A DNA stretch of 64,000 nucleotides from Marsupella aquatica (Eukaryota; Plantae; Marchantiophyta): NCBI GenBank assembly GCA_973895155.1, contig OZ316891.1, positions 30,325,112 through 30,389,111 on the forward strand, read 5' to 3'. Positions 34,827-64,000 of the stretch are shown here, one piece after another. Each line of letters begins with the position of its first letter. Positions within the stretch are counted from its first letter, which is position 1. The notes beneath the pieces are model-generated. The model had not been told where the DNA came from. It searched no databases and saw nothing but the letters and a program-made list of their open reading frames with translations. Position numbers and translations under genes: made by a program.

Positions 34827-37800
34827 TGTACACCATTGAAGATGCTCTAAGGGGGTTTTGACCAACCTAGTAAAGAAATTGCAAGAAATCAAGTCCAACC
34901 CACTCACCCAAAAGCTATCCAGGTTACAGGAACTGGGTCTTTTTGTTACTAGATCTGTTTGTTGAAGAGATTCTACCGCAGCTAACTTTCCATTTGGGTG
35001 TTTTTGGGTTTTCAAATCTATGATCGTCACCTGCTGATACGCGCTATTTAGTGAAATTATCCGGTCAAGGTTGGGGTTGCTTTCATTGAACTAAAAATAG
35101 GACATTGTCAAACTGGGTATCTACTGTACCCACTAAGCAAATCCCTGTTGGGCTGGAGATGCTCTAAGTAAACTGGGAAAGGGACCAATTTACTGAAAAA
35201 AGGGCCAAACAAGTACAAAGGGCAAAAGATGTAAGAGAGGACAAACATCAAAGGACCAAAGATGTAAGAGAGGGCAAATGCAAAACCCCCAAATGAAGAA
35301 GGTAAGAAATAATGTGACAATTTGATGTTCACATTCATTGTAGGAACAGTAAGTCTCCAAGTGGACCTAGATGTACTCTTAGTAGGGCAGCCTTGGTTGA
35401 GGAGTAGTAGTTCCCACTGGTAGAGGTACACAAGGAATCACTTGGGCTTGAGCATGCTGTATGATCACCAAAATCCACCAATTAAAGTTTGTCATAAAAT
35501 AGTGATGGTCCTTTGGAGCCATTCAGTCCATGAATGTCTCGAACTGTCTATTGAAGGAACTCATCAAATTGATGATGGAGTCATCAAAATATCTTGATAG
35601 CAAACGGGAATATGTTCGCTAATGACCCCCCCTACTGAATGTTTCTTATCTTTTGTCATTGCCACTCAACATGCTGCCCTTGCCTGTTATGCACACTATT
35701 TGATGGTGTTCTGCCAGGCACAAAGGGCTCACTACCACAACATCAACCAAGGTATGTTTGCCATCTCAGACCATGGTAAGACCAGCCCCTCACCTGTAGG
35801 GTGGAGGACTGGGAAAAACAAGCACCACATCCCACCTTACTTGTACCAACATCTGGGAGAGGACTGAGCAATAGTGTCCTTCATGTCATCATAAACTTAC
35901 AACTATGCTCTCTCCACCTATTCTGAGAGATATACTTAGTGGACCTCTTGACAAACTTTTTTATCTAAGTGATGCCCTAAGTGATGGACCAAAATATGCA
36001 TATTCTCTCCCAGTGGACCCACTTTTTCATATTCTCTCCTAGTGGACCTCTGGGCCCACTCTGTAGAGCCATGTTCTTGCAAGTGCTCTACCACACAGTT
36101 TGGGCTTACCATGTACTGTAGTTGTATCATTTTTTCTGGTCCTGTGTACTTACTGCAAAGGATAACTGTGCAGTCCATGGAGTACCCAAGCTCCGTAGCC
36201 GTTGGCTGCATTGGAGCATAGAAGTGTCGTAGCACTCCGGGCTTCAGGCTTCTTGAATGCATTCTGGCCCTTGTATTCAAACTACAAAGGAAGTGGTTCA
36301 TGGTAGCATTGGAGCATGCAAGCATTGTTGCGCCCCAGCTTCCCAACTTGGTTGTATTAAACCACATTTTATGCATACAATGTGCATATTGTTATACAAA
36401 TTGCAAAGGAATTTTGAAATTCAAATATGCCCACCGTATATGAAATTTTCTGGGAACCTGTTTTGTTCCAGGCATTGTGTTTAGGTTAATTTGATCAATG
36501 TTTTCTTGTGTTAGTTGTTCTTGTTGTTTGTGCTCATGTAGATTGATTTCAGTTGATGATCTGCAGATATCATCTACATAATTATGCAAAGGCCGAAATA
36601 TACCTTGCATATGTAGGTAGGTATGTTGAGATCATGATTTCATACGTGTACTATATATGAGTAATTAGAATTTTGTGTGCAAGGGATAGTTATGTCTTAG
36701 TTTGTGGTGGCTTGAAAGACCATCTCTCGATGTTGAGCCTTTCAAGCAAAGCTCTGGCAGCTATGGTGTGGCTTGCCAGATGTTGTGTGTATGATGCGGA
36801 TTCCTTGAAGCACAAGGTGCATTTGGCTTGACTTATGGATGTGATTGCATTGGACGGGATCGTGGGTGCATCATTGGTACAGATTGTTGTTTGATTGTGA
36901 GCTGATTATGTGGGTTTTGTGCATGTGGGGACATGACTTCCACTTGCATTCCATTCTCTTTTTTGTTTGTGATGTTTGTGTGCCCATGATTGGATGTGTT
37001 TTGACAATTGATGTGTATGCACACAACAATTGTGTGATGGTTTGCTTGCCCAGCACAAATGAGAGTGTGATGATGTCACAGGTTCACTTGTTTAAGGGTT
37101 TTGGGTATGTGTTTGTATTACTGGACCATTAGTACGATATGTTTGTGTCATATTTTGTTAAGCAAGGAGCAGTGACTATCTTGCCTACAAGGAACTACTA
37201 CTTGTCAGAAATTTGGTTCATATGATACTATAAAAATGTTCTTCACTTTAAAGTTGAAAGTTGTATTGTTGCAATGTACCAACAGTTGGCCTCACTATGC
37301 TTTTTTACTGCTTCTAGAGTATAAGAAGGCTGCAAAATAATTTATGTACTGTAAGACTCTTAAGTAAAAATGGATCTCTTGACCTACTCCTGTACTTATA
37401 CAAAAAGTAGTGCTTTAGGAGCATCACAATCTGACTGGCCTTCAAATATGTGTGTCCAAACCCTGCCTGCGTTCACCAGAGATGACTCTCCTTTAACTTG
37501 ATTACTGGAACTTGAACATGATGCCACAACATCATCTTCCAGACACAAAATTGCATTCTCAAACACAGCATCGTCATCTTGCAAAATCAAATGAAACTTG
37601 AACACAACACCCATGACACTCTATTTGAATAAAGCACCCTATGGTTCATTATCCCAATACAGCGCCCCTGTGTTTGGGGGACGAGCAGCTATCACACTAG
37701 CTACATCAATTTAAAATTAAAAAACAAGCACAAATAGGATTTGCAACACTTTTGAGTGACATTTGAGTGAGAGCAATCAAGGAAATAGTCTCTGAAAGGT

Positions 37801-43487: not shown

Positions 43488-44049
43488 TCCCTTCTTCTCC
43501 TTTCCTTCTCTTTGCTCTCCTTTGCTCGCTCAGTCTCCTCTCCACTCCTCTCCTCTCTTCTCCTCTCCTCTCCGCTTCTCACCTCTGCGCCTACAACAGT
43601 GGCAACCTAGCTAGCTGAGATTACAGAGAGGGCGTTGGCAGAAGAGCAGATTGGAGGCGAAGGGAGGAGTAATAGAGGCAGAGAAAGAAAGAAAGCTCAG
43701 CAATATAGCAATAGCAGCGCCGGATTGGAATGTGGAAAACTCAGGTGGTGGGGGTGGTACTGCGTCGAATGCACGGGAGTCCATGAAATCAAGTCATGGG
43801 GAGATAGTACAAAATAGGATTGCGAATGCTGGGTCGGAGGGAGAGCTTCTGAAAAACGAATCGGGCCGGGGTGATGGTGATGGTGAAGGCGATCGATCAC
43901 AGGTGGGTGGAATTGTGCAAAGCACGGCTGAAGCTGATGAGCCCACAAAATGGCAGCTGAAGAGTACAGGAGAGGAGAGAATACTCGGAAGAGACGAGGA
44001 GAGGAAAAATGCTCGAGGAAGAGAGTGAGCTGCAAAGTGAGTTCGGACT

Positions 44050-44929
44050 CACTCATGCTGACTACAGTGAGCAGTTCGAACTCTCATGCTCTCGAGTTCG
44101 GACCCGAGAGCATGACAGAGTACAGTGTGCTGTCCAGTTCGAACCCGAGAGCATGAGAGAGTCCAGTGTGCTGTCCAGTTCGAACTCTCATGCTTTCTAG
44201 CTCGAACCCGAGAGCATGAGAAAGTACAGAGTGTTGTCCAGTTTGAACTCTCATGCTTTCGAGTTCGGACCCGGAGCATGAGAGAATACAGTGTGCTATC
44301 CAGTTCGAACTTGAGAGCATGAGAGAGTCCAGTGCGCTGTCCAGTTTGAACTCTCATGCTTTCAAGCTCAAACCCGAGAGCATGAGAAAGTACCAAGTGC
44401 TGTCCAGTTTGAACTCTCATGCTCTCGAGTTCGGACCCAAGAGCATGAGAGAGTCCAGTGTGATGTCCAGTTCAAACTCTCATGCTTTCTAGTTTGAACC
44501 TGAGAGCATGAGAGAGTCCAGTGTGCTGTCCAGTTCGAACTCTCATGCTTTTTAGTTCGAACCCAAGAGTATGAGAAAGTACCGAGCAATGTCCAGTTCG
44601 AACTCTCATGATCTCAAGTTCGAACCCGAGAGCATGAGAGAGTCCAGTGTGATGTCCAGTTCAAACTCTCATGCTTTCTAGTTCAAACCCAAGAGCATGA
44701 GAGAGTATGGTGTGCTGTCCAGTTTGAACTCTCATGCTTTCAGTTCAAACCCACAAGCATGAGGGAGTACAGTGTGCTTTCAAGTTCGAACCCAAGAGCA
44801 TGAGAGAGTACAGTGTGCTGTCCAGTTCAAACTATCATGCTTTCAAGTTCAAAACCCAAGTGCATGAAAGAGCCCATAGCGCTTTCCATTTGAACTCTCA
44901 TGCTTTGAAGTTCAAACCCAAGAGCAAGA
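44050..44929. repeat. 63-bp palindromic satellite, block 1 (with 40-bp variant units)
   Basis: Unit CCAGTTYGAACTCTCATGCTCTCGAGTTCGGACCCGAGAGCATGAGAGAGTCCAGTGTGCTGT, with period 63 (44341, 44404, 44467). Confidence 0.93.
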
Positions 44930-45272
44930 TGTTGAGCATAGACGACAATCGCAACAATAAGCACATAACACATCCAATGCGCAAGTAGTCAACACAAGAG
45001 ATATGTGGTTCACCTCCTCGAGGCTACGTCCACGTGAACACACAAGAGAGCTTTACTAAACTCTAAGCTCGTCGGCTATACCAAGTCTCCACAGTGTAAG
45101 CTCTCTTCATCTCTCAAGTGGCTCAGTAACAATGAGCCTAAGTTCCACTTATCCAAGAAAACACAGTTTAGTATATAGTGTGCATCCTAGTTAACCTAAC
45201 CACGTCTCCGACTAAAGTTAGCCTAACTATGGTTACATGTCGAAACCCTAGACCTTGAGTAAATACCTAACA
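44930..45272. mobile_element. Solo LTR (343 bp) inserted in the satellite
   Basis: TGTT...AACA termini and a perfect 5-bp TSD CAAGA (44925-44929 and 45273-45277). Confidence 0.85.
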
Positions 45273-45944
45273 CAAGAGAGAGTATAGTGTGCTGTCCAGA
45301 TTAAACTCTTGAGGGTAAAGTGTATGGTCTACACTCTTCAGTGCAATTAGTCTTGGTAACACAATTTGTTTAGCCTAAAGTTTTTGAGTTTACTGTTCAA
45401 TAAACATTACCACACCACTGTTAATCATGGATTAACACTAACAGTGAGCTCATTAGGTAGTAGTAGTATAACAATAATTCACTTTATGCATAACACTATT
45501 TGAAGAGCTATGGTAATACTAATTCAACTCATGTATAACACTCTTTGGAGATTTTGCTTGGAGGCCACATTTCAAAAAGGACCACTTCATTCAAGCAACA
45601 GTCAAGAGAGTTCCAGTTCACAGAAAGATACAAAAGACATTGTTCCCTCACCTCTAAAAGTTAGGGAACAGATCCTGTTTCATGCACCCTTGATCACTAG
45701 AAAAAGAAAAGTTAGAGCTCGTGAAGAGAGCCTCTACAGGACTACACTACTTGCCAATGAATGTCAACACATATAAGGAGTAAGACTTGACAAATGTGAA
45801 TTCCAAACCAGAATACTCTAAGTAGCCCAAAATTTCACCACAACTAGTGTTATTTTCTATTGAAACCACTCTTAAATTAGAGTCACCAACATTAATTAGG
45901 GACAAACACCAATTCCAAGACTAATTATGGTGAGCAGTTGAGTT

Positions 45945-46240
45945 TGCACTTTCATGCTTTCAAGTTCAAACAACAAGGCATGAGAGAGTATGCTATATTG
46001 TAGCTCAAACTCTCATGCTCACAAGTTTGAGTCTGGGAGCATGATAGAGAGAGAGAGTATAGTGTGCTGTCTAGTTCAAACTCTCAGGCTCTCAAGTTTG
46101 AGCCCGAGAGCATGAGACAGTGTTCTGTTTAGTTTGAACTCTCATGCTCTCGATCATGAGCCTGAGAATGAGAGAGGACAGTGTGCTGTCTAGTTTGGAC
46201 TCTCATGCTCTCAAGTTCAAACCTGAGAGTATGAAAGAGT
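45945..46240. repeat. 63-bp palindromic satellite, block 2 (more diverged)
   Basis: Same CTCTCATGCTCTC...GAGAGCATGAGA units as block 1. Confidence 0.85.
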
Positions 46241-46322
46241 GTGTTATTGACCTACTCTAGTTTGAACAAACTCAAAGAGCCCCGTTTGAAGTGACAGGCA
46301 ACTTGCCGAGTTGTCGGCACGT

Positions 46323-46721: not shown

Positions 46722-47178
46722 GTTGGTTGACAGACTCTAAAGCCTCTATTTGTTGGGCAAGTCCAAACCGGGTCAAAGAGGTTGTTTGCATGGCTTGAGT
46801 CTTAGGGGTGCCTAGAAATCCTTTCAACTCATGATCAGACTCACAGTATGTGATAATGCTTTCTTGGCAATCATGCTTTTGCACTGGCAATCTCACCAAG
46901 TGATAATTGATTTTGAGTCTGCATGGTTATCATGACAATCATATAATATTGTAACTTTAGTGTATCAAAAACATGTAAGTCACCAAATGCAGAAATATAC
47001 ACACTGAAATGTATATATATGCAATGGAGGTGTAAACATCTATAAAGGCATGATAGAAACAAGTCTACTGATATCTGAATGTAACCCAGTGGGATGCCAA
47101 GATTGGTCTGTTGCATCTAATAAATTATCGTCTAATTCCAAGTACAGTGAGAGACGAGCTATCTGAGGTGCTTTGCCT

Positions 47179-47890
47179 TGTCGTGACATATAGTATCATA
47201 ACCATAGTGTATCGAAAACATACAAGTCACTGGCAATGCATATGTGCAAGCTGCTAGCAACCAACATGCATAGAAAAGTCCAATCACATTCACAAGTGCC
47301 AAGAAAAAGCAAATGAAGTGGTATGTACATAGTGGAGGTGTAAACCTTTGTATATAAAAGGCGTAAGAGAAACAATCGTACTAAAATTGAATTGAAAACC
47401 GGCGGGATGCCAAGATCGGCCGGGAGCATCTAACGAATCACTGTGTGAATCCCGTGTACGGAACTGACGAGCACTGTCTGAGCTCTATCAACAGCAATTC
47501 AAGAAGAACTGAAAACCGACAAAGAGAAATACACCCTAAATAGATCAAGTCAAGGCGTCACACTAACAAGCACGTTTTGCTTCAAGAACGGCCCAGACTT
47601 GCTACAAGAACATGACACTAACTCAAGTAGTACACTAGCCCTAACTACATACCTAGCGGGCATGCGAGGGACATGCCGATGTGCACAAGCGACACTGTCC
47701 CTCGGCATGACAGCTATCGTGACATATAGTATCATAGCCATAGTGTATCGAAAACATACAAGTCACTGGCAATGCATATGTGCAAGCTGCTAGCAACCAA
47801 CATGCATAGAAAAAGTCCAATCACATTCACAAGTGCCAAGAAAAAGCAAATGAAGTGGTATGTACGTAGTGGAGGTGTAAACCTCTGTAT
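47179..47890 (-). repeat. 3' repeat block B1-gc-A2-B2 of the retroelement
   Basis: 47179-47352 is near-identical to 47715-47890, and 47353-47712 is near-identical to 52926-53284. Confidence 0.92.
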
Positions 47891-47929
47891 CCCCCCCAGA
47901 CCACAGCCAAAAGGAGGGCTGAAGAAAAT

Positions 47930-50900
47930 TCAGGTAGCACGTGGAGCACAGGAAGGGCAAAACCATAACCCTTCTGGCACCTGGGTAAGTTCAGGCCAAA
48001 GGCAGGAAAGATGGTACCCTCCATTGCAATTGTCACACAACAGCATCTGGTCAGCATCATCAATTCGCAAACACACTTTGCAAGGGTAGTCCACAGGTGG
48101 AATCCAGGTAGAAGTCACAATGGTGGGATCCAGGTTAGGCAGATGACAAGGGGCGCAATTCTTGGCATTGTCAGCAATTGTGCGCCCATCTGCCCCTTGT
48201 AACTCTAGCACTCCAGACGATCGAATAGCTTTAACCCTGAGAATAGTATGACTGGTAGAGGTGTCCAGGGTGTCGTTAGCTTGCCGCTGCAAGTACATGA
48301 AATCTCCCACATCAAACTTCCTGACCTTGGGCTGAAAAGTGCCCCCTCGTGTGTGTGCATAACGCAATGTGTCCCTATGATGTGCAATGGCCAAATTCTC
48401 CATGGCCATGGGCATAACCCTCCTGAATAGGGCAGCCCTCTCAGAGATCACATCAGACCAAGTCACAGCTGAATCCAAGTCCACCACCTGAAGCATGTGA
48501 GCAGCAATAGCAGAAGGTGGAACTAGGTGACGACCAAACAACAAGAAGCAAGGAGAAAAGTTAGACAATGACGCATGTCTGGACATCCTATACCCCATGG
48601 CAATGTAGGGTAAGGCCAGGTCCCAATCCTCCTTGTTTTTGGTGAGGCAGATCTTCCGGAGGCCCTTCTTGCATGTCTGAACCATGCGCTCTGCCAAGCC
48701 ATCTGCATGTGGGTGATCTCGTGATGTCCGGCGATGATCAATGAGGGCCTGATCAAGCAGCTCCTGGAACTCTCCTCTAAACTCTGAGCCCTGGTCAGTG
48801 AGACATTCTGCACAAGCTCCAAGCGGCTGAGAACTTGTTGCAGGAATGCTTGGCTGGTGCTACGGGAGGTCTTATCCGGCAATGCCACAAGTTCTATCCA
48901 CTTGGAGAAATGCTCTATCATGATCATGATGTAGAGATTACCCCGAGACGTGAGGGGTAATTCTCCAGCCAAATCACATGACCAGCGATAAAACATGCCC
49001 TGAATAGGGAGTGGATGAAGTGTGGGTTGCCGAGATGTGAAAGAAGTCCTCACCCTATCACACTGTTCACACCGGGCAATAACATCTCGAACCTGGCCAT
49101 GCATGCCTCTCCAATGATAATGAGGGACCAAGAGGCTGTAAGTCCTCTTAACGCCAAAATGACCAAGCTCAGAATGTACCTGACGGATAAGGCCAACCCT
49201 CTCATGAATGGGTGGAACCACCACTGCCCTGTCTGGCAAGCAACGCACGAGATGATCTCCCTTCCACAAGTAACGCTTGGACCTTTGCTTAATTCGGTCT
49301 CTCTGGGTTGCAGTAACATGTATGGGGTACTCCCCATGCTGCAAAAATCTCAGAGTGTCGCTGTCCTCCCATATGTCCACCACGGGTTGGTCAACAACGT
49401 AGCATGGCAGCAAAGCAAGATAGGTAGATGCATGAAATGTAGGCAGGATGGAAACCTGGTCAAAATCCTGCCGCGCATCTGAGGAATCATCAGAGGCAAT
49501 CAAAGGGCTGCGGGACATAGTGTCAGCATTTTGATGTGTCACACCAGGCCTATGAATTACCTCAAAATCATACTCCTGGAGTATGAGCGCCCAACGAGCA
49601 AGCTTGCCAGTAAGCTTGTCGTTGGTCATCAACCACTTCAAGGGCTGGTGGTTTGTGTAGAGAACAAACCTGGTCCCATAGAGGTAGGGCCTGTAATGTA
49701 TGACAGCCCACACAACAGCAAGGCATTCACCCTCATAAGAAGAATAATGACTCTCTGCCTGATTGTTGCTCCTGGATGCATATGCAATGACGTACTCTTT
49801 ACCTTCCTCATCATGTTGGCCCAGAATGGCACCAATCCCAAGGGCACTCCAATCTGTGTGTAGCACAAAGACCTTGCTGAAACTAGGTCTTCTCAGCACC
49901 GGGTATTCTAAGAGCTTCTCCTTCAAAGTGGCAAATGCTGCCTCAGCATCTGTACTCCATGTCCAAGTCACATTCTTTTCAACAAAGCATACAATGGGTG
50001 TGCAATGGTACTGAAATCTTTGATGTAGATCCGGTAGTAATTGCACAACCCAATAAAGCTCCTAAGAGTGTGAACATCAGTAGGAGTGGACATTTCCAAG
50101 ATGGATACCACCTTGGCCCAGTGAGCCATAGTTCCATTTGGAAGAATGCGATGCCCAAGATATACTACTGATCTGACAGCAAATTCACACTCTTGGGGTG
50201 TATCTTTAGGTTCACCTTCTTAAGCCTCATGAATAGCTCCTCAAGGTCAAGTAGATGCTGGTCAAATCCTTTGTTGTGGACCAACACATCATCAATGTAG
50301 CATTTCAGAAACTCAGCACCTTGAAGAACCTAGTCCATGACTCTTTGAAAGAATATGGGCGCATTCTTCAAGCCAAATGGCATCACCAACCACTCCCATA
50401 GTTGGTTACTACCATTGAAAGTTGTTTTCTTGCGATCCTTTGCAAGCAGCAAAATTTGGTTGAAGCCTTGCCTTAGATCCACAAGAGTGAAGATGTCTGA
50501 GTCTCCAATACTGTCAAATAGCTCCTCTGGCCGCTGCCAGGTTCAATGGCCTGTAGTCCCCACACATGCGCTTCTCTGTCCACAATCCACTGGAATCCTT
50601 CTTTGCTGGCATCATTGTAGCTGCTGCAAAATCTGATGTAGATGGCTGAATAAGACCAGCTTCGTAGAGCTCTTGGCACCTCTCATCCACCAGCTGCCAC
50701 TCATGCTTACTCAAACGGTGTCTCCGCCTAAAGATAGGTGTTTCATCAGCCAACTCAATGGAGAACTGCATAGTCTTGCACTTACCCAAGTCCTTCATAG
50801 AGAAAGCAAACACGTTCTCATGCTTGAGGAGCAAATTCAGCAGCTGGTCCTTCTGTCTTTTACTCAGGTGGTTGCCCATGATGAATGTGTAGTTGGCAAC

Positions 50901-51500
50901 ACTAGGAATAGGACCTGATGTACTCATGCTTGAAGAGCCAGAAGTGCCAGCCTCTCCACTATCCAGGCTACTAGCATGTTGTTGATAAGGTGATGAGGCC
51001 TCTCCAAGGCTTGTTGTACTTGTTGCTCTGGTCTGATCCACACCATGAAACTCAGAAATAATGTCAGCCACATTACAAGGGACCTCCTCCCCCCCAACAC
51101 TTGGACTGAAGCGGTGAGTGTTGAATAGAGGTAAGTGCACCTGGTCTGGATGCCATGTAGCAGCACCATGGAGTGGTAGGGCTGGAAGTCCTGATGCTGG
51201 ATGAATGTACATCTGAAAAAGGATGCAAGTGACCAGAAGCCAAGTGAGAGCATTGAGATCCATTACCCTGCCAAGTAAAGCATTCCTGGCCAGCCTAGTG
51301 ATTTTGGTGTGACCTGTAGTACCGGGTTGGAAGCCCATAGCCCGTTCTCTCTCCTCAGGACTAGGTTCATCCCATGTACCGGTAGAATGTCGATAAACTA
51401 GGCCAGGACCATCACCCTGAAAAGCATGGGCACCTAGAAAGGACACAAATGTAGGCCAAGCAGCACGGGGCTGTCCAATGGTATTAGCTAGATTGACTGT
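47930..51500 (-). pseudogene. Gypsy pol pseudogene: C5-DNA-methyltransferase C-terminus, reverse transcriptase, RNase H, DDE integrase, PHD finger
   Basis: RT has RMCGDYRPLN, MPFGLKNAP and YIDD (50299-50288). RH has LHTDWSALGIGAIL...YEGECLAVVWAV. The integrase zinc finger is H..GH...CEQC and the core is WSCDL...EHFSKW...TDQGSEF...AERMVQT. The PHD finger lies at 48082-47948. Several frameshifts and stops are present. Confidence 0.93.
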
Positions 51501-52925
51501 CTGATGAATATGCCGGGCCCTCAGCTTTATGCAGATGACACGTGGCGGCAGCAAAGAAATCCGGAAAAATGGGCCCTTAAAAACGTAAACCTGGGCCCCC
51601 CCTTAAGTGTATACATCGGCCCTTTTAAATGTATAAACATGGGGCCTGGTTAAGTGTATACATCGGCCCCGATGTGGACCTAGAAACTGACGGAAGGCAC
51701 GCGTCGACGGGGAAGAAAAATCAGGTGGGGACCGGCAGCCGAGCGAGTGTGTATACATCGGCGTGAAGGCCAGGAAGAAAAAGGGGCCGGAAGCAGTCGC
51801 GGCCGGAAAGAAATCGCATGTGGCAGGATCGGGGGTTCAGTAAATGCAGGCACTGACAATCCGGTGGCGAATGGAGAAGCGGAGAAACGGGCTCCTTTAA
51901 TGGGCTCGAGCCCTGCATAGGGCTTCACTCCCCCTCTCCTTATGAGCTCCCAAAGAGGTGGGGGCTACGAGCTCCCCCTCCCCTCTTAAATTCTTCATAG
52001 GGCCTCGTGCCCTCTCCTTCGCATGCTTGTGGCAGGGCTTCTCCAGGACTCCCAAAAATTTACTCCTCCCCACTTAATGCTACCTAGGGCTTGGTGCTCT
52101 CTCTCTCATTGTCGCTCCTCCTCCTCCTTTAGTGCTGCCTAGGGCCTTGAGCCCTCCTTTCGCTTCCCCCTCCCCCCTTAATACTGCTGGATGGGCTTTG
52201 TGAGTCTGTGCCCTACAGGAGGACTCCCGAGAGAGGGAGTTGAATGTACTCCCCCTCCCCCTTTAATGCAGCATAGGGCCTCGTGCCCTCTCCTGGCACT
52301 CGCCCCCTTACTCTCCGTGGCTTGTGCTTGGCTCCCCCTCCTTTCCTCGCGCTTATGCTCCTGCTCGGCTCCCCCTCTCCTCGCACTTAATTAAATGCTG
52401 GCAGAAATGAGAGGGCACGATGCCCTATGCGCAGCCTGCCTCATGCGAGTTGTCGACAGCAAGGCGAAGGAAAGAAAAATAGCTAGAAAAGGGAGGCGCA
52501 CAGAAAAACGACGGCCGGTGAGGAGAGAAAGGAAAACCTCGGGAGTGGGTAACATGGGCGTGCGGCCCTATGTGCGTGGTCGCCCCCTCGGCCATGTGCA
52601 TACACAAAGGTGCGGCCTCCGGCTGCCAGGCGGCAAGAAAAGAAGGATCAAGAGAAGGGGCAAAAAGCCCCCCTGAAAATGCAAAACCTCCCGGAAAGTG
52701 AGAAGCGCTCCCCTCGTCTCCTCTTGGGTGTACTCCGCTGGTCCGCAAATTTAAGTGTATACACATAAGTGATGTGTATACAAAGAAAAATCTAACTCTA
52801 ACTCCATCACTAGATTTTTCTTCAAAGAAATTGCACTGTTGTCGACGGAAAGTGTTGACCGTCGCGAGCAATTGAGAAACACAACGTTTCTGATCTTCTT
52901 CCCTTCACTCAACAGTTCTTCTTGA

Positions 52926-53284
52926 ATAAAAGGTGTAAGAGAAACAATCGTACTGAAATCGAATCAAAAACCGGCGGGATGCCAAGATCGGCCGGGAGCA
53001 TCTAACGAATCACTGTGTGAATCCCGTGTACGGAACTGACGAGCACTGTCTGAGCTCTGTCAACAGCGATTCAAGAAGAACTGAAAACCGACAAAGAGAA
53101 ACACACCCTAAATAGATCAAGTCAAGGCGTCACACTAACAAGCACGTTTTGCTTCAAGAACGGCCCAGACTTGCTACAAGAACATGACACTAACTCAAGT
53201 AGTACACTAGCCCTAACTACATACCTAGCGGGCATGCGAGGGACATGCCGATGTGCACAAGCGGCACTGTCCCTCGGCATGACA
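52926..53284 (-). repeat. 5' repeat A1 of the retroelement, containing a putative promoter
   Basis: Near-identical to 47353-47712. TATTTAG on the minus strand at 53114-53108. Confidence 0.9.
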
Positions 53285-54889
53285 ACCTCGACCACTAATC
53301 AAGAAAAGCTCTTGAAATGAAAGAAGTTGTGCCCTGAGTATGATAAGCATGTCACAGTACTAGGATCACACATTTGAAAAAAAAGACATTTACACATGTT
53401 TTGCGCAACACTTGTTAGGAATTGACATGGTGTTTTTAATTGTAATTAGTTTGGCTTTACCAGGGTTTGTTAACCCTAGATTAGTTCTCTGATTAGTTTA
53501 GGATAAGAGGCACTCATTTAGGCTCAAAAATCTTAGTTGCCCTTGGGATGTTTAGGTTGGAGGAAGAACATTATTCTTCACACGTACCCCTTCATTCGAT
53601 GAATCCTTCAAGAGTTTCTCCATCATGGTGTTGTGTCACAATAGTGATTGAGATTGACTGCTCTCTCATGTTCCACTTATTTGGTGCCTAGTCCAAGCCG
53701 TCCAGTTTCTTACAACACTATCTATGTAAATTGCTATTATTAGGATCTACATCTACTATTGTGAAAATTTGCTATCTACATTTTGTAGCAATGTCAGTGC
53801 AAAATGCTTAGCATAAAGTAGGGATAGTCATGGTATGACAATGTTGCAATTGATTGCTTCACTGCAAGGAGTTTGCAAAACGTGTTAAAGTTGTGAAATA
53901 GGCTGGATGGTAAATATTGTGAAGTAGCATGGGAGAAAATGGAATGGAACAAAGGAGTTCCACAAATTGACCTAAAATTTGTAATGAATACTATAATTCT
54001 GGTTAGATCTGGCCAAAATATTTAGTGAAATTTGTGGTCAAAATAGTTATAGAGTTCTAAACTGAGATAGGTAATCCAGGCTGTGCTAATTAAGATAAGT
54101 ATTAAGTTGCACAAATACACAGCATTTGAATGCTTAGACTTCAAGTGCAAACCTTGCCCCTTAGGCATCAACTATAAAAGATTGTAAGCACGACATGCAA
54201 TTTGAAATGTGTATTTTGATACTATTTGAATTTTTTAAAAATAACATAAGAAGTAACAGAATGTAATCCTAATATACCCCTAAACCCCAAATTGTATTCC
54301 TTATTATATAGATTTTATAAAGCTAAATAGGCCATTTAAATTTCAAACTGTAATAATTATTGAATATCTTCTGTTAGATATAGAGGAAGATATAGAATGT
54401 CAAAATTAGTTGCTCAAAAATAATTATTAAATATCTTCTGTTAGATATCGAGAAAGATATAGAATTTGCTCAAAAACTTTCAGAATATTATTGAGAACTA
54501 CAAATTTCCAAAGATGACATACTTTCCAATGAACCTAACATCTTCAAGTTTAGTTGAGACCAACAAATTTCCAAAGAGAGTTTTCTTGTCACATTTCAGG
54601 CATCAGTGTCACATTTCAGGCATAGGTGTGATATGTACCATGTTAGCAGAAATTAGTTTGTGGACCCCCATCTGTTTTGAATTGAATGAGATTGAAAAGT
54701 AGATAGATATTGATATAAATAAATTATGTGTTAAAAATTAGATAGTTATTGATATAGATAAATGTGTTATACAATATTGATATGTGTTGGACAATGGGTA
54801 TCTTTATTGGGACTAGTCAATTTGTTTTTGCATGGCACACCATAGTGTTCTGAAAAATAAAATTATGTACTACATCATGGAAACAACTG

Positions 54890-57800
54890 TCACATCACGT
54901 TGAATTTCCGCTTGGATGTAGTGGATTCTTCCATTGTTGTTTGGGCAGGGACGTTGGATAGCAGCCCCTGGTTGCTACTCCTCCTCAGTCTGTCGATCAG
55001 GGACTGAGATTGTTGATGTGTCAGCCCTACCAGCATATCAAGTGGCATCTTGAAATCATGCCTCAATGTGGTCAGTTGCTCTAAACGAGCTCCCTTTGTG
55101 ACCTGGATGTACTCAAGCATCCCGTCCTTGTAAGTGAGCTGGTCTTCCTCAAAAGGAAATGCCATGTACCTAAGAATCTCCTTCATGACATCTGCATTTA
55201 TTTTCAACACGGAGTTAGTGCTTAATGTGCACATGAGATGGTTTAATTCATTTTTTGGGGGGGTTTTCTCTTTGTGCTTACCAGTCGCTGGTTTATCTCC
55301 ACAATGGTCGTAGAAGTCGGCCTTGAACACTTTCCTCTCTTCGATTGTTTTTGACAGTTCTCTCCTGTTGATCCCGTTTAGCATCTCAGTTGTCTCGATT
55401 CCGAGACCGTTGCCGAAAGAAATTTGTTTAGCCGTTACCTCCAAGTTCTCTGTCTTGAAGTCATCCGATGGCAGCTCTCTGATGATCATCCTTGCCATTT
55501 CTACGGCTGTCATGGGTTGCACAGGAAAGATGTGAACAATCTCTTAGAACAATAGTGCCCGTCAATGTTAATGAATCTTGCAACTTTTGTATCATCATTT
55601 CATTATCGCTTGCATCAACAAGGTGAAGTATAAAGTGGACACTCTTTACCTGAACTGATGTCGGAGTAGCGTTTGTCAGATTGCTATTTGCGCCTGTCAT
55701 TGTTTCTCGTGGTTGTTGTGATGCCTTGGCTGCCTTGTTGCCTTGGTGGTCGACATCTGCTTGTTGAACATGACGAATGGATAAGTGGAACACTTTGAAG
55801 TCCGACGGCGTAAGATCTCCAACAATGCGCATGAATGCTCTATTTGTGATCATACTCAACATAACGTACACCAGGCCCGGTGTGAATGCACTGTTTATTT
55901 CTAGCACGACCTTGCCCGCTATTGTGCAACCTTGGCTTTTGTGACCTGTTATGGCGTATCCCAACATGAGTGGGAAAGTGGATTTGCGATGGGTTTGCTT
56001 TCCCGAGATGAACTTCTTCTCATGAACCGTGCGATTGATCTTTACGAGGCAGTGGTTGGAAGACATTCTCACAAAAATCGACATTTTGCCTTCGGCTTCT
56101 ATAGTGATTTTCTCCACAATTTTGCCGTTGCCGTTCACGGCCTGCTTGGAGAGGTCGATGTTGTGTGTTAGAATCACCTTGCATCCAATTGTAACGTTTG
56201 TCAGTGTGTGGAAGGAGGGATCTTGTATCCAAGGTTGGGTGGATTCGTCTGAAGGGGCATTGGTGAGTATTGGGACGGACACGATCTCTTGGCGGGGAAA
56301 ATATCTCTGTAATGCACGTTCGTTGTAGTTGTCGACTGTTTCTCTATGTGTGCATATCACGGTCATCAAGGCGTCTATGAAATCATGGAATCTTGTTTGG
56401 ACACGTAACATCGTCCCAGGCACGCATCGATCGATTCTTGGGTAGGGAGGTTTGTGCGGGTGTTGTTAAGGAACTCCATGAACTCCCTGTCTGTGGTCTG
56501 TTTGAGCACAGTGCTGAGGTGAAATTTCTGCATGGTCTCAAAATATGGCGACGACGAGAGGTGGCACGACCTGCATATGTCATTGGTGTGGTGGGTGCAA
56601 ACTGGAGGCAATTGGCACATGTCTCCGACCAGGATGATCATCTTATTTTGGAACGGGTTGGATGAGCAATGCTCGTCTTGGAGTGTCTTGTGTAGTCTTG
56701 TGGAGACGCAACGCAGCAGTTTGGGTGTCAACATGCTCGCCTCATCTATGATGAACACATCATTGTTCCTCAAGAGGTGGTATTGGGGACTGGTGATGTG
56801 CAGAGGTCTGAGCTCTCAGTGTATTGGAATGCTGAACAAGGAATGCATTGTCACCACGTCGACATGAAGGTTTATGGCAGCCACGCCCGTGGTGGCATAC
56901 CTCTTCACCTTCCTCCCTTTCGATGTCAAGTATTTGTTAATGTACGAGATGAAGAAAGTCTTGCCGAATCCCGGATTTCCATCGATCATGAACAGATCGC
57001 TCTTGACATCCTTGAGGGTCTCAAACACTTTGATTTGCTCCGAAGTCAAGTTGACGGTCGGGAGAGTTTTGTCGTTGAGCACCGGGCCGATCGGTTCCTC
57101 TACAGCGATGGTGGGGACCGCTTGGAATGTGGTCGAGTCGTTGAAAATTTGGTGGGGAAGCTTTTCATTCAGCTCCTATAGCAGGTGGGATGTGTGGTGG
57201 GTGGAGTAGAGGTGCGATGCGCAATACTCAAGCACCAACTTGTGTATGTTGTCGACGTTGGTTATCAACTTGCGGTGTATGCACTCGTGCAAGTAACTCC
57301 ACGTCTCGCTTATGGGCCTGAGGAGAATCTTGCCTTCTGCACGGAATCTCATGACCTTCAGGAGGTAGTTGTAGAAGAAGCCGTTCATCTTGTATACTAG
57401 ATGATACTCCAAAAATTGCACGAGCCGATCCATCGGATACACAAAATTGTCTTGCAAATCCCTACCGACGTAGTCTTTGGTGTTGTTTTTCTTATTGGTT
57501 AGGACCTCGTGGTTGGTGAAGTAGTCGTAGAAAGACATTGCAAACATGTCCTCGGGCCTCTATGCGTAGAGTCTGGTGGGATGCAAACATATCCCCGAGG
57601 ACTTTCGGTAGATGGCGGACCTCAATTCCAGAGGCGACGAGTCCATGAAGGCCACTGTCTCTGAGCGATGGATGATGTTGATTTTGAGGCATGTCAAGGC
57701 CGCCTCCGCGGCGCACACGCTCCGAGATAGGACGGCTCCGCTGACGAGCTTGAGTTGGACTTTAGACAATTCCACGAGTCCTAGAGTGCGCGCATCGTTC

Positions 57801-58102: not shown

Positions 58103-58311
58103 CCGCTATTACAATGAGCCCAAGCCTCCAGTGATTGAGACATTAATCCTGGCAACAATGCTCGGCAGCGCACGACATTTGGTGAACACCCATAAACTCA
58201 CAACTATCCGTTATTACAATGAAGCCCAAGCCTCCAATGATTGAGACATTAATCCGGGCAACAACGCTTGGCGGCGCACGACATTTGGTGAACACCCATA
58301 AACTCACAACT
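58103..58311 (+). repeat. 105-bp tandem duplication at the broken 5' edge of the Helitron ORF
   Basis: CCG.TATTACAATGA.GCCCAAGCCTCCA...CCCATAAACTCACAACT starts at 58103 and 58208. Confidence 0.9.
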
Positions 58312-59490
58312 GTCCATTTCAAGTAGATGAGATTTTTCGATCTGACTTAGGATCTCTCTCCATGTCGAGAAGTATAGGTGGAAAGTGTTCCTAGTATAAC
58401 AAATCTTTTAGTAACCATTCATAAAAGTACATGTATTAGATTTGACAACTTAGTACTACAAATCCAGGGCCAGACTTTCCAGACCTTGAACAATCATTGT
58501 AATGTAGTGAGTTATGCCCATTCAATCGATACATATATTCAATGGTAAGAGAGTATGGTCTGATCGATTTTTCTCGTTTGTTTCATGGTTGTCTTTCTTC
58601 TCGAGCAATTCAAGCTATTGTAGTTTTTTTCAGTCCAAGAAATTGAATCATCCATAAATTCTCATTAATTAATTAATATTATTGGTTATTATTTATTGGT
58701 TACGGACCATAAAGAGGATGGGCAATAGGTTGTTCGGGGTTAAAAAATGGTTATGAATCTATGATTTATTAAACATTTTGTTACCTAGAGTAAATTAATT
58801 ATTATTTTTTATATCAAAATTTATGATATAATATCATCAATTTTACCAAAATCATACCACAAACATGAATGTTGAAATAAATTTTGTTTTGTAAACCAAT
58901 ATGTACCTGTTTGCGACATATCTCGATGATGTGGCGCACTATGGTGCCAAGAAATTTGGAAAGGACCTCTAGTGGGGTTCGTAAAGAGGGTTATGCTGCA
59001 ATCCATCCCAGTTGCTAAAATCTGTCTCAGCTTTTAGGCAAATGTGGAGGTCCATGGTAGCTTCAGATTCATCGTACTTGTGGGAAATCAATCCCATAAT
59101 TTGTTGATTTGTAAGCTTTGAGAACTAACGTCAAGAGATCTTCTTAAAAATAACGAAACACACCATCCCTCTCGGAATTCTGAACCTAGTTGTCGGGCTA
59201 TCACCATCTTGATATTTGTACACATGACCGCCGTAACAAAAACTGCAAAACGAGCACTTGGTGATACCTCACTCACCTAAGCTTACCAGCACTAATTTCT
59301 ACTTCAATTTAGTGTCTGGATCTGCGTTTGTTAGAGCTCACTCACCTGTGTGCATTCTCACCAATGGATACAAATCGACTCACCTGAATTTCGGCTTCTC
59401 GCAAGAAGGTTTGATTCTGGGACTCCTATCGACAACAGTATACAGGATCACAATCTGAGATTTTGTTATAGTAATTTGTGAGGGCTACCA

Positions 59491-62400
59491 CTACACCCAT
59501 GCTTGCCATCCAGTCCATATTCGTCCAAGGAGGTTTGGATCTATGGCCTGATCAATGAGGCAATCCACCTGTTCCTGAACTGACCGGCATTTCTCCCCGG
59601 TGATGCGGGCTCGGACATTCCGACTAGGGCTGCCCCGCACTATGGCTTCAAGCGCAGGCAAGTAAGGCTTGTTGGCATGTAAGGAGGATTGAAGTTCAGC
59701 AATTGTAATAGCAGCTGGGTTCCAGAGCTCAAGCTTTCTCTGAGCATTCGAGACCTTCAGCTCAACATACTGTTGCTCAAGGTTTGCCTCCATTTCATCA
59801 GACCCACTTTGCTTCTCTCGAATGCTGTTTGTCTTCATGGCCTCATTTTTCCAATCCACCAAAGGCTCCTTAACGAAAACGTCCATCACTGCAGAGATTA
59901 TGTCTCTACTTTGATGTAGTGCAGATAATGTGTGCACCATATCAGTTCGCAGCAGTCCAAGGGCATCCAGAGGGAGAAGAAAGTTGGTCAGCTGATTGGT
60001 GAGTCGGAACGGTATAAGTTCTGGGATAGGCAGAAGTATAACGCCAGTCCCAAAGCTGTAACCAAAATCAATCGGGACCAGTGACCCACTTTGCATGTCA
60101 ACTAGACAGTTGGCAAGATGACGGTCCCCAACTCCAGCAATATATCCACATATGCTTACAACCGACAGACTTTTGGCAAACTGTGACCTTAAGGCCAGAT
60201 ACGATTCTGCGCTCGTAGCCCATCTTGCCACTCCTGCCCTGAACGTGTCCCAAGGAAGTTGGGACTGAATCCCGGTCAACATTTGATTGATTTCATCAAA
60301 ACCTGCTTTCTTGTAGAGGTTTGTGAAGCTCTCAAGTAGACTCTTTGACGCCCCCCCCCTTCTTTGTACCCAATCCTGGTGTAGGGCCCTCAACTTTAGA
60401 AGGAATCCCGTGGCTGCATCCTTTCCTTCCTGAGCTAATTGAGGAAGCTTGGAAATGAGCCCATCCTTCACGACATCCTCTAAAACACAAGTGTTCTCCA
60501 CAAACTGTAGCAGCCCACAAGATTTCGAGACGGGAACTACAGCGTAAGTTCTTATGGATAAACCTCGGTGAGACGCCGCAGAATTTCTCTGGAGAATGCT
60601 GTTCATAACTTCAAACAGCTGCTCAATCCTTTGATCCAGTCGAATGTCCTCCCCACCCTTTACCACAAACTTGTACTCCTTCTCGTCCGACCCTCTCATA
60701 GTTAAAACTTTTGGTCGTTGTTTCGAACCGAGGGAGATAAGAGTCTGATCAAGTCCCACCAATTTCACATGTGAAAGATGGTTGGGCTCATGAAAACCAT
60801 TGTACTGGCCAGGTATTTCAATTGTGAATTTTGCATCGGATCCACTGGACTCACTCCGAGAGGAAAACGTGCCACTTTCTTGTCGACTGATCGGTGCAGA
60901 TGATGATTGGTCAAACTTAGCCATCCATTTAGATAGATGTGCAAGACTCATAACACCAGTTTGTAGACTTTGTATGGCCTTCTGTAAGTTTGCCATCAAA
61001 TCTTTTACTGCGGCCATGAATCCCTTCTCGTCCATGTGAAGTAGCTTGTGCCCATCATCTCCAAGTGCCTTCTTCACCCGTTTCGACCAATCACGAGCAA
61101 ACTTGCAATTATATTCTCCAGCCTGCCGCGAAGTTTGACACATGCCATCCACGTCAAGGCAGTCTTCCACAAGATCTGCGAACACAGCCTTGGCCATCTC
61201 GCTGTTTGAGGCTGCCAAATAGTTGTTTATTTGAGAAAGTCCATCTCTCAGACGTTGCTCTGGAAAGGTCAGATCTTCCAGAGCTCTGACAAACCCTTGC
61301 ATGTAATCATTCTTCAAAAGTTTTGCCAGCATGAGGGTTCTTTTCTGCCCAACCTGTCCAAAGTCTTTCTCACTCACATGAAACGGAAAATACAGAGAAT
61401 GAGGGTGGAGTCTTGCAATTTCCTCCAGCAGTCTCACAAATAATTTGCCCTCTTCTTGATCCATCACAGCAAGCATTTGGGGTATCCAAGGAATGAATAC
61501 CCAGCTCGGGACTTGTTTGACCTGGTTTGGAAATTCTGGATGTGTTTCAGGATACTGACCAACAAGAGACAAAATCCTCGCAACTCCATGCTGTGCCCGT
61601 AGTGAAGCGTCTAATGTGGCTGCTTTCATCATGTGCTTGACTATCAGTGGAGGGTAAATGGACGCTGGTGGAAGTCCCATAGTGAAGTCTCCTTTCGTAA
61701 TCCCAGCTCTCACATCATTGTTGCACTCTTCATTCTTTGTAGATTTGAGTAGCTCATCACAAAATTGCCCAAACTTGAGAGAAGTTTTTGCTAACCGTCG
61801 TAATGTTCTGGGATCAACAGAAGATTCGTTACCGACACTCTGATTTGTGAAAACCTCTGAATAAGCCGTGTAAGCTGCCCCGAGCAGGGATAAGCACTCC
61901 TTCACGGCGGATGGATTTGGGTCTGTATTAGGCAAGCAACCTAATGTACTCCAAGCAAGCTGGACGGAGGCATTTGCTTCAAGCAATTTGAAACTCATCC
62001 AAATCCTTGAATCTTCCTCAACCCCTGGCTTTCGAGCACTGGATTTGATATAACTTAGAACCTGCACCCCAAACAGAACCAAGAATGGTTCACAACTTCA
62101 GCGATGAAATCTGTAGATATGTAATATCATTAAATCATTTTCTAGCATTGTTCACTGTGTGAACCAAGAAAGCACTGTCAAACTCACATAGTCGATATTA
62201 CCCCAGTTCTACACGACGCGAAGTCGGCACGCAGTTCATGCTGGTTAAGAGTTAGACATCAAAAGGAAGTACCAACCTCATTGAGCATTCGAGGGGCTTT
62301 GCCAGCTTGTACGTTCTGGATACGACTCGCTTTAAGTAATTGGAGCTTCACAAGACCCTTTGTAGACTCGTAGTCTAACTTAACTTGGTTTTGAGACCCT

Positions 62401-63542
62401 TGTCTAGCTGCAATGTACTCCTCCATATACTTCTGCAAATTTAGACACAGTCAAACTCCAGTTTTCGTTCCCTACTTGGCAATTGAGACATCTTCCGCAT
62501 ACAGTCTAAACAGAAAAACGTTTCATAATGTGCACAGCTTGACGGAACAAACCTCAGCGACGCTGTATGCACCCTGCTTTATGTGACTGCTAGCTGCTTG
62601 ACGGAAGATGTGGGCCCTCTCTTCGTCAAGCTTAGAGGCAAATGTTGTCTTGACATCATCTTTCGAGTTTAACTGCTTGTTGACCAGGCCTTGAAATTTA
62701 TGGAAGAAAACCAGTCGATTTTGTACGATGTCTTCCCATACTTCCACATCGTCGTCTCTTGATGAAGGCCAACGATTTCTCCACTCTTGCAATTTCCTAT
62801 TGCAAGAACACAACATCCAGTTTGTACAAGAACAGTTCATATTAATAATTCGGGACGAGAGAGTCCACATCTGCTCAAAGTCCAATTAAATCGTATCCTA
62901 ATAAATTGAAGTACTTCAAGAGTAGAAATACTAATCAACCGAAACGGACTTGTGCTGTGTTTTGACGTTTTATTTTAGTACGAGGAGAAAACCATATTTG
63001 AGAGAGGAATATTCGAATGTCACTGCTATACAACCTCGGAATTTCCGCCAATTGTCGACTAGCCATAATGTCAGTAAATTCGTCCAATTCAGCCATCTTT
63101 TGGAGCTTTTGCAATTGTCGTCGCCTGGCTCCAACTGCCAGAGGGTGGAGCGCTGACCACTGCTTTCTGAAATGCCTGTAACAGTTTGAGAGGAGAAATC
63201 GAGAACGGTCCAGCTGGTCATTCACCACTGCCAATTGTGCCAGCTGTGAACCATAATGCTTCATAAGAACATCTCTCTTACCAGGCTCCTCCAAAGAAGA
63301 TTGGATGAAATCTGTTGCCATAGAACGATAGGTGGCCACTTTGACAGTCCCTCGCATAAACAAACCCAGATACGGCTCTTTCAAATTTGGATCCCAGAGC
63401 CTTCTGAGATCTGGATCTGACGATTCGTCTTCATCTTTTACCTGCTCCACTGTGTCTGCTAATATCAGATCCCACCTATTCAAGTCTGCTAGGCACACTA
63501 AGCGTTGATTATACCAGATGTCTTGCTCTATTTTAGAGACCC
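59491..63542 (-). CDS. PRKDC: DNA-dependent protein kinase catalytic subunit (DNA-PKcs), 3' exons (FAT, PI3K-like kinase, FATC); gene continues upstream
   Basis: Last exon (62061-59491) has GSDEKEYKFVVKGGEDIRLDQRIEQLF, GVGDRHLAN, IDFGYSFG, PELIPFRLT and the FATC end QVDCLIDQAIDPNLLGRIWTGWQAWV*. Further exons lie at 62432-62277, about 62796-62553 and about 63542-63034. Confidence 0.93.
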
Positions 63543-64000
63543 CTGCAAAATTATCGTCCATGAGCAAACAAGAATCAGTGAGCTATCTATGAAGAAGCTA
63601 ATCAGTTGATCAATGTAGCACCAGAAGGAAACAAGTCTATCAGCATTTCCTGCAACAGTGCACCACAAGTAACCCCGCCCAATATCCACAGGTGCATGTC
63701 CTCCTTGAAAAGCGACGGGCTAGATTCCCCGAAACCATAGCCAATTTCCACTAATTCCCGAAGATTACCGTTGTTGTGCTCTAATGATAATTAAAAGCTG
63801 AGGGTTTAATCTAGGGGAATAGCAAGGCAAGAAGCCGAGGTTGTTATACTGGGAAAGTGCGTCCGAACAGGATCAAACAGAGAACGGGATAATTCCAACA
63901 TTTCGCAGAAAATGTCCATGACAAACAAACCCCAAACCCAACTCCTAAACTCCCCGTGGGGGGCGGGGGAGTTGTTGCTGCTATCTAGGCAGCTTCCACA

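Follow-up and report, generated by a model that had tools for sequence, protein, structure and literature searches.

The stretch analysed here, 64,000 nucleotides of the liverwort Marsupella aquatica (positions 30,325,112 to 30,389,111 of contig OZ316891.1, assembly GCA_973895155.1; hereafter the window), carries a 6.1-kb Ty3/Gypsy retrotransposon whose direct repeats are split. On its coding strand, which is the minus strand, the order is repeat A1, internal region, repeat B1, the dinucleotide GC, repeat A2 and repeat B2. Judged from their sequences, the inserted copies of this element and its relatives are a circular permutation of the product that reverse transcription should make, such that the family would begin and end in the middle of its long terminal repeat (LTR). 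We propose that the integrase cuts a palindrome inside the LTR and that the ends of the complementary DNA (cDNA) are joined to each other first, that is, as a circle, a reading to which we would give a probability of about 0.6; that the cut is internal, whichever reading of the joining is taken, appears very probable. The layout is already in print for an element of Klebsormidium nitens, and the mechanism is apparently undescribed.

The element arrived as a single insertion

The two copies of A are identical at 350 of 359 bases (97.5%, E 7e-175) and those of B are 97.7% identical across 174 bases (E 2e-80), which bears out the split direct repeats described by an earlier reading of the letters alone (the sequence-only reading); all coordinates are collected in Table 1. 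The element starts with TGTCATG and ends with GTCACGACA, the B1/A2 junction reads CACGATA-GC-TGTCATG on the coding strand, and a run of seven G stands at 47897-47891 (minus). The sequence-only reading had assigned the motifs TGTCGTG, CATGACA, GCCT/ACCT and CCTTTGTAT joined to ATAAAAGG to the minus strand; they are present, but on the plus strand. Likewise, the two ends that it described as fused at A2/B2 are indeed fused, but at 47354/47353, one base from where it had placed them. The flanking 4-mers, AGGT (53288-53285) and AGGC (47178-47175) on the coding strand, differ by a single C>T in a CHG context.

In runs X3 and X4, which come from another organism, the site is empty: 47175 is joined to 53286, the shorter side being 255 letters long, the 4-mer occurs once and the entire 6.1-kb unit is missing. 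Given an empty site that lacks the unit and has the 4-mer once, the whole 6.1 kb arrived as one insertion. Contigs of run X2 cross both outer junctions with zero differences (46743-47231 and 53258-53700) and, together with the empty site, rule out an assembly artefact. A terminal-repeat retrotransposon in miniature (TRIM) or a tandem LTR-like repeat that captured a piece of pol, another objection that the sequence-only reading had foreseen, is rejected because everything from A1 to B2 is absent from the empty site. The internal order of the window copy rests on the assembly and on the relatives, the listed contigs covering parts and none the full element. Depths in X2 are 1330-1690 for single pol contigs and 15-21 for the pair of junction contigs. 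These values point to something like a hundred near copies, a rough figure since depth is no copy number.

Beside the element, 11 bp off its 3' end, lies an old relic consisting of an A end and a B (47167-46940, minus), which is also present at the empty site; its identity is approximately 77% across 190 aligned bases, and 5 nt are gapped where A meets B.

The split layout is shared by a related family

Relatives were drawn from metagenome contigs as the best 80 of ~840 matching stretches, with 66-80% amino-acid identity and in 56 groups. Copies that agreed in group and flank were counted once, no repeat could be seen in 16 loci, and the 3'-end counts were made by eye. Among 42 independent 3' ends, 24 read B-A-B, one reads B-A into foreign DNA, one reads B-A at a contig end and 16 have B only. 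Both ends could be seen in 16 insertions, 13 of which are A-internal-B-(2 nt)-A-B and three A-internal-B. [quoted passage not shown] The mirror layout, with B in front, is equally missing (0/20 independent 5' ends); were the two layouts equally frequent, its absence beside 13 full copies would have p 2e-4.

As that reading had anticipated, independent insertions share the split layout with 4-bp target-site duplications (TSDs) at TG/CA ends. The 4-mers match exactly in 8 of the 16 relatives and at three or more of four letters in 13, compared with 1/240 and 23/240 for mismatched pairs. Two loci, L011 and L055, do not match. The end-motif rule behind these counts mis-picked the end of L027, which has an exact TSD under the other rule, and in six loci with two tandem end motifs the choice of the inner or outer one affects how the TSD is read. 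No exact duplication of 3, 5 or 6 bp was seen among the 16. For the window, the arithmetic of the empty site would also allow a 3-bp TSD (CCT, with one A added); it was rejected on the absence of any exact 3-bp match among these relatives.

Window A and B gave no blastn match against the relatives' loci, and nevertheless the termini, the CA-NN-TG junction and the boundary between the GGTCTG run and ATACA are identical between the window and the related family; these short signals have therefore been conserved while the rest of the repeats diverged. The B1/A2 spacer also occurs as GT, AC and AT, nearly all of them forms that deamination of CAGCTG would yield, and we infer that the variants probably stem from cytosine deamination. 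A scan of viral contigs returned 38 pattern matches, with no relative of the element among them.

Several individual copies have features of their own. A 5.2-kb copy (L002:4311-9521), whose repeats are 95-97% identical, is short of ~4-5 kb of the 5' internal region; with the window copy, it shows that short non-autonomous derivatives recur in both families. The related family has a 15-bp tandem of the right-end motif where B terminates at its 3' side (e.g. L037:12725-12751); several copies have lost single units of it, and L002 ends at the inner one. At L010:3111-5858 one family member is nested in or adjoins another, giving two B-A-B blocks, and the 5' end at L077:3510-3899 carries the opening 100 bp of A twice.

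Signals for reverse transcription lie away from the inserted ends

By a strict pattern, the PPT stands directly ahead of B1 in the window and in 37/39 relatives. At the other side of the internal region no tRNA-type primer site follows A1; the 13 nt found there match A positions 202-214 (53083-53071) by perfect complementarity, a length that none of 150 control 25-mers reaches, the best attaining 7. The minimum free energy fold pairs this self-primer with the PBS, with a modest z of -2.25 (6/200 shuffles are equally good). A different 12-mer takes this part in the related family, pairing with at most two mismatches in 16/17 insertions; positions 3 and 8 of the pairing differ between the two families and have changed on both sides. 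A TATA-like box lies 31-37 nt upstream of the self-primer in 17/17 relatives. A strict test for the self-priming run was passed by 5/12 relatives, a low figure owing to decay. The complementarity predicts self-priming as in Tf1/Sushi and Tcn1.

Given a self-priming site and a PPT in these positions, the unique 5' region (U5) ends at the end of A and the unique 3' region (U3) starts at the start of B, so that reverse transcription of the standard LTR kind should leave B-gc-A at each end of the cDNA, which is the LTR that the sequence-only reading had derived. The TG/CA attachment (att) sites would then lie buried in the middle of the LTR.

How the two copies of each repeat are related can be read from their rare bases. 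The number common to copies within an element is 14.7 against about 6 for A1/A2 and 5.4 against 2.2-2.8 for B1/B2; for shared rare transversions the values are 4.45 against about 0.8 (A) and 0.9 against 0.2 (B). No column separates first from second repeat copies (smallest uncorrected p 0.02). Since rare bases are shared within elements and no column is specific to a class, both repeat pairs appear to be recopied from one template in each cycle.

The A2/B2 joint varies in length and the CA-GC-TG junction does not

Where the PPT-adjacent and PBS-adjacent ends meet, at A2/B2, the joint resembles a fresh end-join, in keeping with the fusion that the sequence-only reading saw there. Among 25 independent A2/B2 joints, 11 are exact, one has a substitution and 13 are changed in length: 1 nt is missing from four and a shared AT from four others, two have 1 nt more, approximately 7-8 nt are gone from one, another is short of the first ~150 nt of B2 (L027), and one is without B2. 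The B1/A2 spacer, in contrast, measures 2 nt in 26/26 copies (Fisher p 1e-5). By the strict pattern, which misses one joint that is unchanged by eye (L006), 11/25 A2/B2 joints are unchanged compared with 15/17 at A1/PBS (p 0.004) and the figure given above for PPT/B1 (p 7e-6). Because length varies at A2/B2 and never at the CA-GC-TG junction, the A2/B2 joint is likely to be remade in each cycle. On a tree of 38 copies the junction types need 21 changes against a shuffled mean of 21.5, and neither joint types nor B-only forms cluster. In one insertion, seen in L038, L042:12590 and L045:2825, the end of A2 coincides with the cDNA end deduced above, and what follows is unrelated DNA, with no B2 within 8.5 kb.

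A model for integration, and the alternatives

On these observations we propose the following cycle. Transcription would start ~30 nt after the TATA-like box of A1 and run at least into A2. The first 12-13 nt of the transcript would pair with the bases after A1 and thereby serve as minus-strand primer, as they do in Tf1, so that, by standard LTR reverse transcription, each cDNA LTR would be B-gc-A and the cDNA would read B-gc-A, internal region, B-gc-A. Its free ends, the end of A and the start of B, would be joined imprecisely in every cycle, most simply into a 2-LTR circle, as the insertions and deletions at the joint suggest. Each strand of CA-GC-TG would then be cut behind its CA, and this stagger would produce two CA-3'OH ends with 2-nt 5' overhangs; the cut product would be inserted with a 4-bp target duplication. 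Such ends are the normal processed substrate of an integrase. Since no mirror layout occurs, the cut must be biased to the upstream junction; this junction may be favoured because it would lie on the plus-strand strong-stop DNA and become double-stranded early, the downstream one being completed last. Circles with one LTR, or double cuts, might account for the A-internal-B copies (16/42 3' ends), which can arise equally by recombination between B1 and B2.

In its strictest form, the model would have integration proceed obligately from the end-joined 2-LTR circle, through a staggered cut at the upstream junction only, the att sites having moved into mid-LTR, already joined to each other as the palindrome CA-GC-TG, and the ends made by reverse transcriptase (RT) never being used by integrase. 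To this form we incline slightly less than to circle formation as such. It would make the family part of an old green-plant lineage with internal att sites, converging on the structure of PAT/Ngaro and on the junction chemistry of IS3-type elements. There are precedents for parts of it: foamy virus integrase cleaves the LTR-LTR palindrome after CA on both strands in vitro, leaving 2-nt 5' overhangs (PMC1180852), and for HIV-1 a proposal exists that 2-LTR circles act as a precursor kept in reserve (PMC4372172). The cDNA ends of Tf1 are described as often bearing primer copies and non-templated bases (PMC11042837), and by analogy such ragged ends suggest how a self-priming element could come to favour an att junction that lies internally and is copied without error.

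Several points weigh against this model. A symmetric cut of the circle is contradicted by the absent mirror layout: the sequence-only reading held that cutting a 2-LTR circle at CA-gc-TG gives exactly the observed layout, and although the product fits, the mirror layout would be expected equally often and was found at 0/20 5' ends. The explanation by timing is a proposal. The model is read from inserted copies alone, with no circle, cDNA, transcript or cleavage observed, and the population counts come from a related family at 66-80% amino-acid identity and not from the window's own genome. As the A/B joint is AT-rich, slippage may add insertions and deletions there. The junction-type tree is poorly resolved (6/35 inner branches well supported), and a nearest-neighbour test of template copying was modest, an element's own copy being the best match in 9/22 cases for B and 5/12 for A. 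Finally, the L038/L042/L045 insertion and L027 hint at joining after integration, which they fit at least as well.

That last alternative dispenses with the circle. Integrase would insert linear cDNA through the upstream CA-GC-TG, and the resulting break, between the end of A2 and the start of B, would be closed by host end-joining. The same product and the same imprecise joint would result, and the exact A2 end joined to foreign DNA without B2 in L038/L042/L045 and the lost B2 start of L027 count in its favour. However, such damage affects only 2/25 joints, 11/25 being exact, later deletion could explain both cases, and the missing mirror layout is explained no better. We regard joining after integration as unlikely, if still the strongest of the competitors.

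A little less likely again is that RT itself makes the A/B joint, the plus strand jumping from the end of A to the other cDNA end, blunt or clamped by AT, and recopying B, after which integrase would cut the over-length product. This would be directional and could account for the asymmetry; exactly the shared AT is missing in 4/25 joints and single extra bases occur, and Tf1 RT is described as adding non-templated bases and leaving primer copies at cDNA ends (PMC11042837). Microhomology end-joining, however, gives the identical 2-nt loss, and the larger deletions in L027 and L052 resemble resection. The clamp activity of RT is a matter of general knowledge.

A replication cycle of the PAT/Ngaro kind, in which an A1-to-B2 transcript gives single-stranded cDNA, B1-gc-A2 templates end repair and circularisation, and a DDE integrase takes the place of the recombinase, would explain the single layout directly, the A1-B1-A2-B2 order being shared with PAT and Ngaro (PMC4157794). 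Yet it predicts an inherited, templated A2/B2 joint, and this joint is the most variable one; nor does it need a PPT at the start of B1 or a self-priming site at the end of A1, both of which are conserved across two families with unalignable repeats. We consider it improbable. That the layout is a one-off (an LTR element of A+B rearranged once, a pol fragment in a tandem A+B repeat, or a mis-assembly) is hardly credible given the empty site without the whole unit, 13 independent relatives with the layout and TSDs of their own, and no relative with A+B at both ends, even though A2+B2 alone resembles a normal TG...CA LTR and a diverged relic of A end and B adjoins the element.

Coding content and lineage

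Pfam profiles and alignment to relatives give the order RT-RNase H (RH)-DDE integrase (INT)-PHD for pol in the window, preceded by the remnant of a DNA methyltransferase (DNMT). The DDE-integrase Ty3/Gypsy element that the sequence-only reading recognised is thereby confirmed, through RT, RH and an HHCC-DDE integrase in the window copy and through a close relative, P0121, whose best solved-structure match is Ty3 Gag-Pol (E 1e-94). The RT is broken by an in-frame stop, by two shifts of frame, near 50190 and near 49975, and by the loss of a short internal piece near 50535. In the integrase, which has a frameshift near 48820, the catalytic residues are D 48975, D 48796 and E 48691, and the 34 residues between the second D and E (D-X34-E) are common to the window and four relatives.

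By itself the methyltransferase remnant had no Pfam match and no meaningful PDB match; it was recognised through relatives only, 51488-51200 aligning directly downstream of the PF00145 match in P0125, P0143 and P0168. Full-length relatives measure 8.6-10.5 kb and have a weak protease match and a C5 methyltransferase ahead of RT. PF00145 is above cut-off ahead of RT in four of the full-length loci scanned and in P0125, P0143, P0168, P0203 and P0227, and an upstream protease is also found in P0168 and P0207. Where these relatives hold ~5 kb including the protease and the front of the methyltransferase, the window has a low-copy stretch (51614..52783) whose summed contig depth is roughly 3- to 100-fold under that of the pol bins and whose two open reading frames (ORFs) gave no match in a Pfam search. 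No gag was found in the window copy or in ORF fragments of decayed full-length relatives; the gag-type PF03732 is present in P0207, a member of the same clade. The window copy is a dead, internally deleted Ty3/Gypsy element of a green-plant family, with gag, protease and most of the methyltransferase gone.

In a tree of RH-INT, 26 sequences including the window fall on one side of a branch with SH-aLRT (approximate likelihood-ratio test) support of 100, opposite 14 other Gypsy hits. This side includes proteins from liverworts (Calypogeia, Riccia, Marchantia), Klebsormidium, Closterium and Tetraselmis and the window; relatives at large occur in liverworts, Klebsormidium, Closterium and chlorophytes. 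Taken by themselves, these relatives point to a probable host among bryophyte-type plants. The clade holds three K. nitens proteins, which are unlabelled as published elements, along with DNMT-bearing polyproteins, and is separate from two chromodomain-bearing hits. Three of the 42 proteins chosen dropped out, and the tree includes no named reference clade and no named Tf1 or Tcn1 sequence. Some relatives of the clade carry other enzymes in place of the cytosine methyltransferase, namely an adenine methyltransferase (PF05869; P0200, P0205, P0213) or a thymidylate/nucleoside kinase (PF02223, PF01712; P0222, P0230).

By its proteins the window element belongs to Ty3/Gypsy and, probably, to its Gypsy-DNMT3 lineage. 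Of the Ty3/Gypsy features it has the protease-RT-RH-INT order (protease in the relatives), the HHCC-DDE integrase, TG...CA termini and the 4-bp TSD, and lacks identical paired LTRs; of those of Gypsy-DNMT3 it has the C5 methyltransferase within the Pol ORF, of which the window keeps the tail only, and the A-coding-B-A-B layout. It is not a PAT/Ngaro element: a tyrosine recombinase had no match in 55 ORF fragments (at least 90 aa) of three full elements (L037, L047, L053) and is absent from the domain lists of 120 long relatives.

Relation to known systems

The sequence-only reading knew of no DDE-integrase element replicating in this way. As regards layout this does not hold, since KnitGypsy-Dnmt3 of K. 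nitens is given DIRS-type repeat structure with Gypsy domains in the legend to Fig. 4c of de Mendoza et al. 2018 (PMC5890265). This element resembles the window lineage in its Gypsy domains, A-coding-B-A-B repeats and C5 methyltransferase in the Pol ORF, and differs from the window copy, which has lost most of the methyltransferase; the accessible text of that paper gives no termini, TSD, priming or mechanism, and its main text no PHD finger (PMC5890265). A streptophyte Gypsy-DNMT3 group is only named in the accessible part of bioRxiv 10.64898/2026.05.21.726589. As regards mechanism the statement stands, in that no published mechanism for a split or permuted LTR layout was found in the open-access PMC and bioRxiv literature.

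Tf1/Sushi and Tcn1 share with the window lineage the lack of a tRNA site, a transcript start that pairs just after U5 and the RT-RH-INT order, but their LTRs are paired and integrase acts on the LTR ends, and they carry chromodomains where the window lineage has a PHD finger (PMC6317226, PMC11042837). PAT, TOC, Kangaroo and Ngaro have the same A1-B1-A2-B2 split repeats, with the outer ends recurring head-to-tail inside (PMC4157794). In contrast, the window lineage has a DDE integrase, TG/CA ends, a 4-bp TSD, a PPT and a PBS, and no recombinase was found in it; the split-repeat layout is convergent with that of the tyrosine-recombinase retroelements.

The proposed chemistry resembles the cleavage of circle junctions in foamy virus and HIV-1, where a TG/CA palindrome is cut on both strands to leave 2-nt 5' overhangs, although there the palindrome comes from ligated cDNA ends and the route is a side one (PMC1180852, PMC4372172). 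In the window lineage, by contrast, the palindrome is encoded in the LTR and copied exactly, cutting it is apparently the only route, and the ligated ends are not the att sites. Insertion sequences of the IS3, IS30, IS21 and IS256 families reportedly follow a minicircle pathway in which a DDE transposase integrates from a junction where the left end abuts the right; these are bacterial DNA transposons, however, and their transposase makes the junction from the donor, not by reverse transcription.

Features of the element and the rest of the window

Table 1. Features of the split-repeat element in the Marsupella aquatica window, from its 5' to its 3' end.
Feature	Position	Strand	Evidence and remarks
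TSD, 5' copy, AGGT	53285..53288	minus	One C>T relative to the 3' copy; 4-mer single at the empty site
Repeat A1, 5' end of element, starts TGTCATG	52926..53284	minus	97.5% to A2; terminus shared by relatives; putative 3' portion of the LTR that reverse transcription would make (end of U3, repeat region R, U5)
TATA-like box, TATTTAG	53108..53114	minus	Sequence; begins 31 nt ahead of the predicted self-primer
Predicted transcript start and 13-nt self-primer	53071..53083	minus	Perfect complement of the 13 nt following A1
Self-priming PBS, immediately after A1, not the tRNA-type TGG	52913..52925	minus	Complementarity, fold
Low-copy, repeat-rich stretch, approximate boundaries	51614..52783	minus	Contig depth, length of relatives
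C5 cytosine methyltransferase, C-terminal remnant of polyprotein	51200..51488	minus	Aligned to relatives
Reverse transcriptase, broken	49975..50690	minus	73-87% identity to P0121, in pieces
RNase H	49570..49959	minus	PF17917 E 4.6e-37, PF17919 E 4.3e-32
Integrase, HHCC zinc finger and DDE core, C-terminal limit approximate	48152..49212	minus	PF17921 E 5.8e-14, PF00665 E 2.6e-6
PHD finger, end of integrase	47948..48082	minus	PF00628 E 3.5e-11
Polypurine tract, GGTCT and G7, abuts B1	47891..47902	minus	Motif and G/ATACA boundary in 37/39 relatives
Repeat B1	47715..47890	minus	Right-end terminal motif TA here, CA in B2; start of B1 the putative start of U3
2-nt GC spacer, centre of the CA-GC-TG palindrome	47713..47714	minus	2 nt in 26/26 independent relatives (by eye); palindrome the putative integrase substrate
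Repeat A2	47354..47712	minus	97.5% to A1; 3' end the putative true cDNA end
Repeat B2, joined to the A2 end, ends GTCACGACA at the element's 3' end	47179..47353	minus	Junction contig in run X2
TSD, 3' copy, AGGC	47175..47178	minus	Flank, empty site

Elsewhere in the window, a C-terminal exon of DNA-PKcs lies at 59491-62097 (minus; E 4e-119 to solved DNA-PKcs), probably with a further part at 62935-63582. The host has kept this end-joining kinase, and its nearness to the element is probably chance. A single-ORF gene for a PsbP-domain protein occupies 31583-32575 (minus; PF01789, E 1e-9). Two ORFs at 54890-56465 (minus) have no Pfam matches; the second contains the motif YAITGHKSQG, which we take to be like that of PIF1/Helitron helicases. 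Tandem arrays of a 63-bp unit containing a 38-bp near-palindrome are found at 44037-44963 and 45905-46243, and further tandem repeats at 33252-34294 (~177 bp), 34411-34827 (~210), 58103-58318 (~105) and 24195-24517 (~82).

Implications

LTR retroelements are taught to integrate from linear cDNA through its two ends, with circles as dead ends. Whether LTR-LTR junctions can serve as real precursors has long been debated (PMC1180852, PMC4372172), and a whole lineage that leaves only products of internal-junction cutting makes the precursor question directly testable. Tools that search for paired LTRs, among them the survey with LTR-FINDER on which REXdb is based (PMC6317226), would overlook elements of this kind or call A2+B2 a solo LTR, and split direct repeats by themselves do not mark a tyrosine-recombinase element. 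The ends made by RT and the ends used by integrase, which are normally tied, are here separated, and this separation may free a self-priming element from the ragged ends of its cDNA. If the model is true, the family would be a natural retroelement built on the circle-precursor route, which is at most a side path in retroviruses.

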